A stretch of DNA of 45,566 nt from a virus (Duplodnaviria > Caudoviricetes): positions 1-45,566 of the IMG/VR virus record IMGVR_UViG_3300033406_000373, one strand, 5' to 3'. The stretch's first letter is position 1. The number at the start of each line of letters is the position of its first letter. Below the pieces are notes generated by a model, which saw only the letters and a list, made by a program, of their open reading frames with translations, searched no databases and was not told the DNA's origin. Shown here one piece after another: positions 1 to 4,499 of the stretch. A program made the translations under genes and the position numbers.

Positions 1-618
1 TTAATACGAATACCTTAATCCTATTTTTGCTTTATCATGTTCGAAATCATAACCGGCAGCAACACCAACAAACTTGCCATCCTTACTTATTCGCCGGCTA
101 ACATCAGCAGTTATCTCATTGATCTTGAATCTACCCACGTCGTACCCGGGATAGATATTGTATCCGTGAATAACCTTCTTGTAAGCAAATACATTATACT
201 GATTAAGATTAACCGGGGTATTTGCCGGCAACTTTTCAATCTCTTTCAAATTAACCTGCTTGTCCGGTTGCTTGGGATCGGTAACAATAGCAAAGTCGGC
301 GCCAGATTTTTTCCTTTCAACTTCAATTGTCTTAGTAACCTCATAAGGTACAGTCTGAATTATCGTATTTGGCGGCTTATTTTTTAGCGCTGCAATTTGT
401 GCGGCCGCTTCGTCAAGTTGTGACTGCAACATATTTATATGAGCGTTCTTCGCGGCTAATTCTACGCCTGCCGGTGTTTCGGCTTGCTGCTGTGATTCGC
501 CTGTGACCGGCTGCGGTTGGTGGAAGTGCTGCCAAATAAAATAGCCAGCAGCCACCAATAAAATAACGCCAAGCGCAATAAGCGCCTGGCGCCATGAAAC
601 ATTTTGTAATGTTATCAT
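1..618 (-). CDS. Membrane-anchored lysis-region protein, candidate spanin-like (N-terminal TM, coiled coil, C-terminal beta-strands)
   Basis: ATG at 618 overlaps the upstream TGA (ATGA coupling); TM ALIALGVILLVAAGYFIW; heptad stretch; ends KIGLRYSY; last gene of the lysis cassette. Confidence 0.65.
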   Translation of the reverse strand: MITLQNVSWRQALIALGVILLVAAGYFIWQHFHQPQPVTGESQQQAETPAGVELAAKNAHINMLQSQLDEAAAQIAALKNKPPNTIIQTVPYEVTKTIEVERKKSGADFAIVTDPKQPDKQVNLKEIEKLPANTPVNLNQYNVFAYKKVIHGYNIYPGYDVGRFKINEITADVSRRISKDGKFVGVAAGYDFEHDKAKIGLRYSY

Positions 619-1130
619 GCCGCTACCCCCAATCGCTCGGCGTATGCAATGGCGCACTGCCGAGATTGCTCCGGCGTAAAGTAATTCCCAGGACATTCTC
701 CTGCGAAGTCAGGAAAAGCCACGCGTACTAACTCAACCTGAGCTCCGCTACACTGAATAGTGTGTTCTGAATTAAGCAATTGATCTACAAGCGCCGCAGC
801 ATGGTCTCCAAATATGTCATGCAATCCACTAACGATACAATCATCGACCCCGTACTGAGTGCCTACAAGATCAAATACTTTATTTACTACAGCCTGGCGT
901 TGTTCCTCACTGATCGGTAAACTGCTTACCTGTTTGATTTGGCAATTATCAAAGGCACTGCCATCCACTATTCGCACCGCTGGGCGCACAGCTTCAACGA
1001 TACGGTATTGACCTTCAATTTCAATACCGATGGCGGCATGGGCATAGTCTGAGTTAGTCGCTTCGCAGATTAGTTTTTCTAGAGCCGGATGCCGCCCGGT
1101 AGTTACATATATCAAATCCAGTGACAACAT
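615..1130 (-). CDS. Permuted papain-like NlpC/P60 amidase (YaeF/YiiX, C92-like)
   Basis: DLIYV...YAHAAIG...IVEA...G.QY...IQCS: His precedes the catalytic Cys, the permuted order. Confidence 0.8.
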   Translation of the reverse strand: MLSLDLIYVTTGRHPALEKLICEATNSDYAHAAIGIEIEGQYRIVEAVRPAVRIVDGSAFDNCQIKQVSSLPISEEQRQAVVNKVFDLVGTQYGVDDCIVSGLHDIFGDHAAALVDQLLNSEHTIQCSGAQVELVRVAFPDFAGECPGNYFTPEQSRQCAIAYAERLGVAA

Positions 1131-1133
1131 AAA

Positions 1134-1703
1134 TCATTCCTCCCTATAAAGAATGTTTCCATCAAATTCTCGGCCATCAATCTCTAGGCTATCGGTAAAC
1201 TGCCACATATACCCCTTAATATCGTCGGCATTACCCCATTGTGCATTCCAGACAGCACAACCAATGCTTCGCCAATCAATAAAATCTGTTAGCCAAGAAT
1301 ACGATGCGTAAACACCGCAATCTAAGCCTAGGTTATCAATAAACGCTTTGCACATAGCCGTAATTTCTTCAGGATCAAAAGCAAAATCATTGCGTTCTTT
1401 GTATCCGTCCGCGTCTTCCATATCGAAGAATATTGGTAGGTCTAAAGAAACACCTACACTTTCAATAGCTTCTCGGCAGTTAGCCGCTTCCTGAATTGCA
1501 TCTTCTACACTCAAAGCGTATGAATAATGATAAGCCCCAACCTTCAGGCCAACAGCTTTTGCTCCAGTTGCGTATTCAGCAAACCTATTGTCTTTCGATT
1601 GTAGACCGTATGAACTCCGCACAATTACAAACTCAATACCAGCATTCTTGACAGCCTGCCAATCAATGTCACCGTTATGATAAGATACATCAATACCTCT
1701 CAT
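1134..1703 (-). CDS. Endolysin, GH25 muramidase (catalytic domain only)
   Basis: GIDVSYHNG, GAYHYSY, DMED and WQFT motifs; 189 aa with no cell-wall-binding domain. Confidence 0.95.
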   Translation of the reverse strand: MRGIDVSYHNGDIDWQAVKNAGIEFVIVRSSYGLQSKDNRFAEYATGAKAVGLKVGAYHYSYALSVEDAIQEAANCREAIESVGVSLDLPIFFDMEDADGYKERNDFAFDPEEITAMCKAFIDNLGLDCGVYASYSWLTDFIDWRSIGCAVWNAQWGNADDIKGYMWQFTDSLEIDGREFDGNILYREE

Positions 1704-2480: not shown

Positions 2481-3026
2481 TTAAGTAGCCGGCCATGTAA
2501 CCGCCTGCACCTCCTCGGCTGTTGCAGCGGCCTCGATTTGCTCACGCAGTCGCCTGGCCGTTTGGTGTAGACTATCGCTGTACTGTGCCAAGGCTACTGA
2601 CATACCAACCGTCTGCGCTGCAATCATGGTAAGTACGGAATTATCTTGGCAAGTCCAATCCAAAGTGAATTCCATTCCAGCACTAATCGCTATCTGGGCA
2701 GCTTGCACAGCAATGGAGATGCGTGTCACAGATTTTTCGTCACTATCTAATACCTTTCCGAGATACGGAACACCCGCCTGTTCTCTCCGGTCACGTTCGG
2801 CTTTAATTTCATCCCACTTGGAGTCTTTTTGCTGTGCCAATGTAGGGCCAACTGGTGTGATTTTTTCCGGATTACCATCTGCACTCTTCTGATATTGTCG
2901 GGTGCAGTATTTATCAAACTCTTCCTTGGACACGCTTTCTACATCATCAGGAATAACTGGATTTATTTCGGCGATATAGCACTGCTGTACTGTACCATCC
3001 TGATTAAAAAGCACATAATACTTCAC
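2481..3026 (-). CDS. DUF4376-like tail fibre-associated/assembly protein
   Basis: KWDEIKAERDRRE..G......DSDEKS...WTCQDNS pattern; follows the fibre gene; GTG start with RBS. Confidence 0.8.
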   Translation of the reverse strand: MKYYVLFNQDGTVQQCYIAEINPVIPDDVESVSKEEFDKYCTRQYQKSADGNPEKITPVGPTLAQQKDSKWDEIKAERDRREQAGVPYLGKVLDSDEKSVTRISIAVQAAQIAISAGMEFTLDWTCQDNSVLTMIAAQTVGMSVALAQYSDSLHQTARRLREQIEAAATAEEVQAVTWPAT

Positions 3027-3038
3027 GTTAGTTCCCCC

Positions 3039-4499
3039 TTATCTTCCTTTTGCGAACCATTTAGCGTTTCCCGTTCCACTAGCGCAAGCGGCGGTAAATC
3101 CAGTAAGTGTTTGGCTAATACACTCTATCGCATCATTACTCCCGGAGATACTGGCAGTGACGTTAGCACCAACAAAATTAACGGCATTAGGAAATGGAAT
3201 AGAGAATACCACCGCTATACCAGCAGCACTTACTGAAGTTGTACCCCATTGCTCAATATGGCCGTCTGGATATTTCATTCCGCCATTTGTATCGTTTCCC
3301 CATGATTCATAATCTGTATAATTGACTTTCCCAACCACCTCATTAGCCAAGGCGGTAATATCAATCAGTGCCTGGTTCGTTGGCGCATCAAAAGCTTTTA
3401 CACAGTACAACATAGCAATTGATTTTGGGCGAGTTGACCCTGAAAATGCAGATAATGTTTGCGAACTAGCCAAGCTAGCTGCTACCCCGTAAGCTGTAAC
3501 ACCACTATAATTTGCGGCGTTAATAGCGTCCATGCCAAACAACTCAGCATTCCCACCTCCGCCATCAGCACCATAGCCTAATATTACTCTTCCGTCAGAT
3601 GAACCGGTTGAGTCAAATCCAGTTATTGAGCCTTTTCGCCAAGTTCCTGGCAGCTTTGTACTATCACTGCCACAAACAAAGTCAACAATGCGTGGTAATC
3701 TGAATGTAGTTGCACCGTCACCGCTACTGTAAGCACCGATTGACGTCTGGACTGCTGCTTGCGCTTGCCATTCCGCTTCTGTTATTAGTGGTGCATTTGC
3801 TTGTACCCATGCCCAAAGCTGCGAATATGTTGTGCGACTTACTAAAGCACCAGTGTCTAAGGCAAGCCAACCAGCGGGAACTGCAGTTACAAGCCAAGGC
3901 ATAATTGAACCTATTGGCATACCAGTCTTTTCAATCATTTCCCTAATATCTTCGTGAGCGCTTGTATTGGTATTGTGTTCATTAAAAGCTTCAGGATGGG
4001 CTGTTGTGCTTACTTTATGTTCATCAAATTCAGCTTTTGACACATATATAATGCTGCCGTCCCTAACAATTGAAACGCTACTTGCATTACCGACAATCAA
4101 ATAAATATCAATGATTTGTTCATCAATCGGTGTAGTCTTGTCCGGAATGTAATCAGTCAGGTTGCCGGCATTGGTATAAGCATAAAGTTGCTCTGCGCCG
4201 GTTGCGCCTATCTTGGCGTAAATGCCAAGTTCTCTAGCAAAAAAGCCGGTTGCCAAACTACCATTAGAAATTGCAAAACGGAGCCTAACTTGACCACCGC
4301 CATCATTTGTATATGATTCTGGTGGAACTGTAAGCTTCGGACTTTTAATAGCCGTTAATACTTTGACATCTTCGCCGATTGTTAACGTTCCATCGCCTAT
4401 TTTTAAGCTAGTAAAGATTAGTGCCGCACTCGATGCTTGTGATTCGGCAATCATGTTTAAACCAGCATTTGTTAGGGTTATACCCGGGAATTGTGCCAT
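3039..4499 (-). CDS. Tail fibre (DUF3751-like N-terminus, tail collar domain, C-terminal gp53/H-lectin-like domain)
   Basis: LTNAG..., GFFARELGIYA, collar PIGSI..W...VPAGWL...TTFRLP, C-terminal PDGHIEQWG...FSIPFPN. Confidence 0.9.
   Translation of the reverse strand: MAQFPGITLTNAGLNMIAESQASSAALIFTSLKIGDGTLTIGEDVKVLTAIKSPKLTVPPESYTNDGGGQVRLRFAISNGSLATGFFARELGIYAKIGATGAEQLYAYTNAGNLTDYIPDKTTPIDEQIIDIYLIVGNASSVSIVRDGSIIYVSKAEFDEHKVSTTAHPEAFNEHNTNTSAHEDIREMIEKTGMPIGSIMPWLVTAVPAGWLALDTGALVSRTTYSQLWAWVQANAPLITEAEWQAQAAVQTSIGAYSSGDGATTFRLPRIVDFVCGSDSTKLPGTWRKGSITGFDSTGSSDGRVILGYGADGGGGNAELFGMDAINAANYSGVTAYGVAASLASSQTLSAFSGSTRPKSIAMLYCVKAFDAPTNQALIDITALANEVVGKVNYTDYESWGNDTNGGMKYPDGHIEQWGTTSVSAAGIAVVFSIPFPNAVNFVGANVTASISGSNDAIECISQTLTGFTAACASGTGNAKWFAKGR

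Follow-up and report, generated by a model that had tools for sequence, protein, structure and literature searches.

A candidate one-chain spanin with a predicted outer-membrane beta-barrel anchor in a Negativicutes prophage lysis cassette

The window analysed here is the whole 45,566-nucleotide stretch of the IMG/VR record IMGVR_UViG_3300033406_000373 (positions 1 to 45,566), which encodes baseplate, tape measure, sheath, portal, both terminases and a repressor, indicating a temperate myovirus prophage. A lysis cassette lies at its left end on the minus strand, in the order holin (Phage_holin_4_1, PF05105; 1703..2224; E 1e-11), GH25 endolysin (1134..1703; E 1e-28), Peptidase_C92-like ORF (permuted papain-like, accessory; 615..1130; a weak match at E 0.0014, below the cut-off) and, as the last gene, P0001 (1..618), whose relatives match PHROG 10797, a family without a name or assigned function. 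A DUF4376 tail gene (2481-3026) and a tail fibre gene (3039-4499), also on the minus strand, serve as context only. The intact P0001 ORF translates to 205 aa with the C-terminus KIGLRYSY, is preceded on the same strand by a ribosome-binding site (GGGGG, 626..630, 7 nt 5' of the ATG) and overlaps the stop of the upstream gene with its start (ATGA, 615-618). Four nucleotides past its stop, left of the window, begins a 17 bp hairpin with a T tail, and the 196 bp of contig on that side hold no complete ORF of at least 50 aa. We thus confirmed that P0001 ends the lysis cassette (ATGA-coupled to its upstream gene, downstream of holin and endolysin, and followed by a terminator), as stated in the initial annotation, and found no canonical spanin gene just left of the window, a finding that would have spoken against the proposal. 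A promoter scan around P0001 gave no excess over shuffled sequences. An out-of-frame ORF with FIGGC (413-595) was considered as a hidden o-spanin and rejected, as it lacks both a signal-like segment and conservation. The Peptidase_C92-like ORF is missing from most related cassettes; it also stands between endolysin and candidate in L024 and probably in L031. Two further family copies were found in the host genome, each one or two genes past an endolysin.

The AlphaFold2 monomer of P0001 (98 sequences; pLDDT 85.6, pTM 0.57) and the alignment divide the protein into three parts, all encoded on the minus strand. A single TM helix without a lipobox (residues 13-32; 523..582), with positive charges N-terminal and an aromatic belt C-terminal of it, lies within an N-terminal model helix of residues 9-32. 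The predicted periplasmic part (residues 33-148; 175..522) contains a Q/P linker, short helices, a small alpha/beta domain and a conserved LNQYN motif, the model placing helices at 49-58, 65-77 and 91-105 and strands at 85-89 and 136-140. Four amphipathic antiparallel strands follow (residues 149-205; 4..174), a meander of 149-160/163-176/183-191/196-204 that is predicted to be an outer-membrane (OM) barrel segment. This agrees with the earlier description of an N-terminal TM helix without a lipobox (P0001 has no Cys), a Q/P linker and roughly four amphipathic C-terminal strands ending KIGLRYSY, the strands being supported by the model and by an alignment of 237 sequences. The coiled coil described there is short, about two heptads; a long one is absent, the region consisting of helices of 10-15 residues and strands. 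Across the 237 aligned homologues, the hydrophobic face of the strands comprises positions 153 and 155; 169, 171, 173 and 177; 184, 186, 188 and 190; and 199, 201, 203 and 205, the opposite face is polar or Gly, loop 1 is rich in indels, and Y183 and G185 are kept at 99%. Such a layout is expected of OM strands whose two ends face the periplasm, and the alternating faces, as read from the alignment, make a soluble fold less likely.

The same architecture recurs in both subfamilies, A and B, with a TM helix in 266/282 and 264/266 sequences, respectively, and a median uncharged run of 19 residues. Small-x-Ala near the TM end, scored by a pattern test, occurs in 20 subfamily-A sequences and one subfamily-B sequence (21/530 TM-bearing sequences), and lipobox-like text in the TM segment is found in 9/266 (A) and 3/264 (B) and is not conserved. 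No member of either subfamily has a second TM helix, the C-terminus being beta. By this pattern test, the N-terminal segment appears to behave as a signal anchor. The family has no conserved periplasmic Cys, Pfam and PHROG searches with P0001 returned sub-threshold TM/helix matches only (GspL_C, phrog_1152), and no structural-protein family matches its relatives. For subfamily B, AlphaFold2 placed four strands at 145-187 with low confidence (pLDDT 58.9, 11 sequences). By simple arithmetic, the 116 periplasmic residues would span about 17 nm if helical and about 40 nm if fully extended, while the periplasm of V. parvula measures 24.2 nm (PMC10665443). A helical periplasmic part would thus fall short of the gap, so that either some of it has to be extended or the envelope has to be drawn together; the model packs part of this region compactly.

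The C-terminal KIGLRYSY (4..27, minus strand) fits the beta-signal consensus polar-x-G-x-x-hydrophobic-x-aromatic (PMC10945584). Close homologues end in F or Y in 117/120 cases and carry G at -6 in 113/120, while among the 4194 host ORFs of at least 150 aa, 320 (7.6%) end in F/W/Y and seven have the full motif, three of these seven being P0001 family members. Family-wide, a terminal F/W/Y is found in 224/286 subfamily-A and 271/275 subfamily-B sequences and the full beta-signal in 122/286 and 0/275, respectively, and one clade ends ..LTIPK without a terminal aromatic. The proposed BAM beta-signal therefore stands for P0001 itself but not for the whole family, where the glycine is not kept throughout; judging from these alignments, what the family conserves of the signal is the terminal aromatic, with exceptions. 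A clade comprising P0160, P0174, L047, L048 and L051 has a Pro-rich hydrophobic insertion (PKIPL-type) in the turn that connects strand 2 to strand 3, which accompanies the loss of the terminal aromatic.

Coupling analysis was performed on 281 sequences (about 157 effective) with 200 uncoupled tree-based simulations as the null; the 40 effective sequences of subfamily B gave too little depth for such an analysis. Of the pairs that connect strand 1 to strand 4, I150-S204 ranked third and G152-R202 seventh, and N154-S204, N154-R202, Y156-R202 and Y153-L201 were within the top 40 couplings, together forming an antiparallel band. Strands 1 and 4 are the opposite edges of the sheet and unable to pair within one chain, suggesting a contact between chains. 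Over the six strand pairs examined, with no correction for their number, the observed value was reached by 3/200 null runs for pair 1-4 and by 0/200 for pairs 1-2 and 3-4, but also by 0/200 for the non-adjacent pair 2-4 and by 31/200 for the true neighbours 2-3. The modest signal for pairing of strand 1 with strand 4 of a neighbouring chain is therefore suggestive only. Fold comparison of the model gave nothing at E<=0.001 in the Foldseek pdb and viral searches and a best Z of 5.3 with VIA. Hia (E 0.13, below threshold) and other YadA-anchor proteins were among generic four-strand matches, and AtaA (Z 5.3, rmsd 2.2, 52 aligned) was tied with unrelated proteins, four-strand meanders matching membrane barrels and numerous soluble folds alike. 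The Pfam YadA-anchor model matched none of 92 family members.

We then compared 66 non-redundant family loci, after the removal of 7 duplicates and of 15 loci that were noise or repeats. A PHROG lysis gene was among the two nearest upstream ORFs in 51/66 loci (129 ORFs), representing several unrelated endolysin families, so the linkage of homologues to lysis genes that would be expected of a lysis protein was borne out. The other 15 loci include four with a VgrG3-like C-terminal domain gene and two with a weak YkuD match; in L038 tail genes lie directly upstream, and L042 is beside a TPP-enzyme gene with no lysis gene. The VgrG3-like C-terminal domain genes (upstream in L053, L074, L079 and L081) are endolysin candidates without annotation, as is a family without a Pfam or PHROG match that takes the endolysin position in L005, L039, L078 and L478. 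Lipobox-like ORFs in any frame were present in 3/66 loci, two of them being the family gene itself, and none is conserved, which agrees with the earlier observation that no lipoprotein or Rz/Rz1 gene is visible in the cassette. None of the 66 P0001-type loci has an overlapping out-of-frame TM ORF.

So that the count would not rest on loci chosen because they carry the gene, a second sample was chosen by holin, taking 40 of the best-scoring PF05105 loci of 201 class genomes and passing over those at contig ends or already collected. A P0001 family member was downstream in 10/40 of these loci, and an endolysin was found in at least 28/40 (the seed search missed L440, L442 and L478). Of the 28 loci with both holin and endolysin, 10 carry the P0001 family in the following slot, 7 have a pair of genes that overlap in two frames, 7 have a protein of about 95 aa without a TM and 4 have none of these, and no locus has two kinds of slot gene. 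Only 10/28 of the sampled cassettes thus carry the family. The TM-less protein (91-109 aa, PHROG 18996), located right after the endolysin in L457, L458, L459, L461, L462, L464 and L470, looks amphipathic-helical and may be a disruptin-like factor. In the slot pairs, a TM/coiled-coil gene is overlapped by a gene for a signal peptide, a coiled coil and a C-terminal anchor, the latter being a hydrophobic helix in most. Such pairs follow the endolysin in L463, L467, L474, L477, L478, L479, L456 and L454, the secreted coiled-coil partner ending in the helix except in L454, where it has a beta-like tail ending in F; the TM partner matches PHROG 18860. This overlapped pair is a second candidate for a lipid-free spanin.

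The P0001 strand module also ends a signal-peptide/coiled-coil protein in 51/66 viral loci (among L348-L406), matching the profile of close P0001 relatives at E 1.2e-7 to 1.8e-4, while the periplasmic profile gave no match. In 50/51 of these loci, which are close kin, a TM/coiled-coil gene overlaps the module-bearing gene in another frame, with no clear lipoprotein (for example L365:1464-1992, L382:1110-1671 and L369:1260-1875). A C[SA]A-type signal end occurs in 46/51, and its Cys makes lipidation of the module-bearing protein possible; in 32/51, the 1.5 kb flank contains an endolysin-like ORF. The strand module here occupies the position of the o-spanin lipid anchor in Rz/Rz1, which is the strongest indirect evidence for an OM anchor used in lysis. 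A four-strand module shared by the one-chain P0001 and an overlapped two-gene system is new here. In Bacteroides phage B124-14, listed as spanin-less, ORF016 (L092:6765-7370) encodes a TM, a coiled coil and a beta-rich tail ending TTIIK directly after the lysin; kinship to the P0001 family was not seen.

The host is diderm, as the initial annotation had assumed, since Omp85 (one match) and LpxC were found in its genome; LolA gave no match there and LolCE none above the cut-off. Negativicutes lack Lol, and in V. parvula no lipidated OM protein was detected, a result that the authors call not conclusive (PMC5491611, PMC10665443). Named close relatives of P0001 come from Sporomusa, Pelosinus and Methylomusa. 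A 92-sequence profile matched 106/401 class genomes at E<=0.001, many of them TM-only noise, and 59 reached 1e-8; among the 386 Bacillota genomes of other classes there were 10 weak matches, at E 5.5e-5 at best, every one of which covered the N-terminal half and came from a genome that lacks Omp85. In this phylum-wide sample, the profile search did not find the family in 301 Omp85-less or in 85 other Omp85-bearing Bacillota genomes. Holin loci were sought in 80 of these 85, 11 were returned, and none of the 9 examined has a family member. In three such loci of other diderm Bacillota (L484-L486), holin and endolysin are followed by different TM/signal-bearing genes, none matching the family. 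Two distant subfamilies align with the family over residues 6-159 (hhalign 98.5% and 98.1%) and have their own four-strand tails. Subfamily B comprises 3946 database clusters, and 47/50 of its titled genome loci are Negativicutes; the other three are metagenome bins that bear the labels Streptococcus, Lachnospiraceae and 'uncultured bacterium', which we suspect to be mis-binned phage contigs. Real matches were therefore restricted to Negativicutes, as predicted, and the proposal of a solution for diderm Firmicutes holds as to a diderm host but has to be narrowed to this class. An annotated phage collection had no real match for P0001 or a Veillonella-type member, and single-protein viral scans returned no locus for P0187 and one for P0166. 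The Rz model PF03245, which is narrow, matched 0/201 class genomes, with E. coli as a positive control. We found no description of such a protein in a search of largely open-access literature, and the term 'spanin' is absent from the main text of a Negativicutes prophage survey (10.1101/606087).

Taken together, P0001 is probably a one-chain spanin whose OM anchor is a beta-barrel made by several copies. The N-terminal helix would be inserted via Sec and stay uncleaved in the inner membrane (IM), while the C-terminal strands of several chains would join into an OM beta-barrel with the assistance of BamA; trimeric autotransporters suggest a trimer with 12 strands as the simplest guess. The cell wall would hold this bridge until the endolysin removes it, and the collapse of the bridge would then lead to membrane fusion and OM disruption, by analogy with lambda Rz/Rz1 and T1 gp11. 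We infer insertion by BamA, an uncleaved anchor, closure between chains and membrane fusion from these analogies and features. Such a protein would likely need no lipid anchor to disrupt the OM; the lipoprotein route on which all known spanins depend is missing in its hosts. Several points count against the one-chain spanin: the coevolution signal is modest, the fold searches gave nothing at E<=0.001, subfamily B does not have the full beta-signal, the length of the periplasmic part is the main puzzle, the model shows no long coiled coil to drive zippering, 4/28 cassettes have none of the three candidates, and L042 has a TPP-enzyme gene where a lysis gene would be expected. The chances are about even that Negativicutes phages more generally possess a lipid-free spanin toolkit, with a swappable, self-oligomerising four-strand barrel anchor in one-chain or two-gene form. 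Such a toolkit would amount to a third spanin class, with membrane fusion driven from an integral beta-barrel.

An alternative explanation is that P0001 docks on the host Omp85, its last strand pairing with strand 1 of BamA or TamA in a TamB-like hybrid barrel, which would either bridge the membranes or jam OM assembly. TamB, which inserts its C-terminal strands into TamA by a beta-signal (PMC13119328), is a precedent, and the terminal aromatic as the best-kept feature and the one Omp85 match of the host would fit as well; we nevertheless consider docking unlikely, because the strand 1-4 couplings point to self-closure, the lipid-facing side is kept on all four strands and distant subfamilies have dropped the beta-signal glycine. 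It is also quite unlikely that the helix acts as a signal that is cleaved off or released, leaving an OM protein that serves as a pore, in superinfection exclusion or in lysogenic conversion (Lom/Bor-like) and forms no bridge. Moron genes often adjoin lysis cassettes, and in the two-gene version the OM-like strand module does follow a cleavable-looking signal (46/51). Against this stand the 19-residue uncharged run, the aromatic belt and the rarity of small-x-Ala (21/530) in the one-chain family, as do the shared strand, the ATGA coupling to the late operon, the lack of promoter excess over shuffles and a position fixed after many different endolysins.

The finding that four-strand meanders fit many soluble folds, together with a periplasmic part that is short for a 24 nm gap, would suit an IM lysis accessory whose sheet is a soluble periplasmic oligomer, acting as a timing regulator or endolysin partner. 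This is very unlikely, as nothing above TM-level noise was found in the 301 Omp85-less Bacillota genomes, the family pairs with unrelated endolysins and holins while conserving its terminal aromatic, and a helical C-terminal anchor takes the place of the module in sister gene pairs. We regard as highly improbable a virion or virion-assembly protein that stands at the end of the late operon by chance: tail fibre genes are 2 kb away and L038 has tail genes directly upstream, but P0001 has a TM anchor, follows holin and endolysin, precedes a terminator and matches no structural family.

The one-chain spanin reading makes the family a candidate, testable answer to the question of how phages exit from Lol-less diderm cells, and Veillonella, whose subfamily amounts to the 3946 clusters mentioned above, is a genetically tractable host. 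The 57-residue four-strand anchor of P0001, if inserted while tethered to the IM, would also be a minimal test substrate for BamA.

Among known systems, both described spanin classes use an OM lipoprotein, and 13% of the surveyed phages of Gram-negative hosts have no identifiable spanin (PMC6139136). The u-spanin gp11 of phage T1 (Kongari et al. 2018, PMC6139136) resembles P0001 in being one chain, encoded by the last cassette gene, with a predicted anchor for each membrane. It differs in its N-terminal OM lipoprotein anchor and C-terminal IM helix, whereas P0001 is inverted and uses beta-strands without a lipid; there is no sequence match between the two. P0001 thus shares with u-spanins the single gene that ends a holin-endolysin cassette in a phage of a diderm host, and has neither the lipobox Cys nor the C-terminal IM helix. 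The N-terminal IM helix and the helical periplasmic part are reminiscent of lambda Rz/Rz1 (PMC6139136), and P0001 has a weak Rz-like match (phrog_1152; E 0.008, residues 1-98), while the sister two-gene system shares the overlapped two-frame layout. In contrast to Rz/Rz1, P0001 has no lipoprotein partner (66 loci), no long coiled coil and no conserved periplasmic Cys; of the features that define the class, the N-terminal TM of an i-spanin is present, and the o-spanin lipoprotein and the long coiled coils are absent. The nearest Pfam-bearing clusters by language-model features (score 0.88) are DUF6808/DUF6549 phage proteins, a lead only, with these domains assigned to 24-28% of the cluster members; the HMMs gave no match to the family, and a search for 'DUF6808' found no literature. 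With the anchors of the trimeric autotransporters YadA, Hia and AtaA, the family shares four C-terminal amphipathic strands and the terminal aromatic, the fold matches being weak. Those proteins export a passenger, whereas the P0001 family has an N-terminal TM anchor and no YadA-anchor match, and its signal-anchor features in the pattern test differ from the cleaved signal and exported passenger of autotransporters. A host precedent from the same Lol-less class is MlaD of V. parvula, whose single chain runs from an IM helix to the C-terminal strands of an OM barrel, according to a model and fractionation; it differs as a lipid-transport bridge in which each chain makes a barrel of ten strands, and in its stalk of 150 residues (PMC10665443). 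TamB likewise combines an IM anchor with C-terminal OM strands in one chain, but is a lipid-transport bridge and needs TamA for its hybrid barrel (PMC13119328). P0001 therefore falls outside both spanin classes as they are defined, yet it probably works like them.
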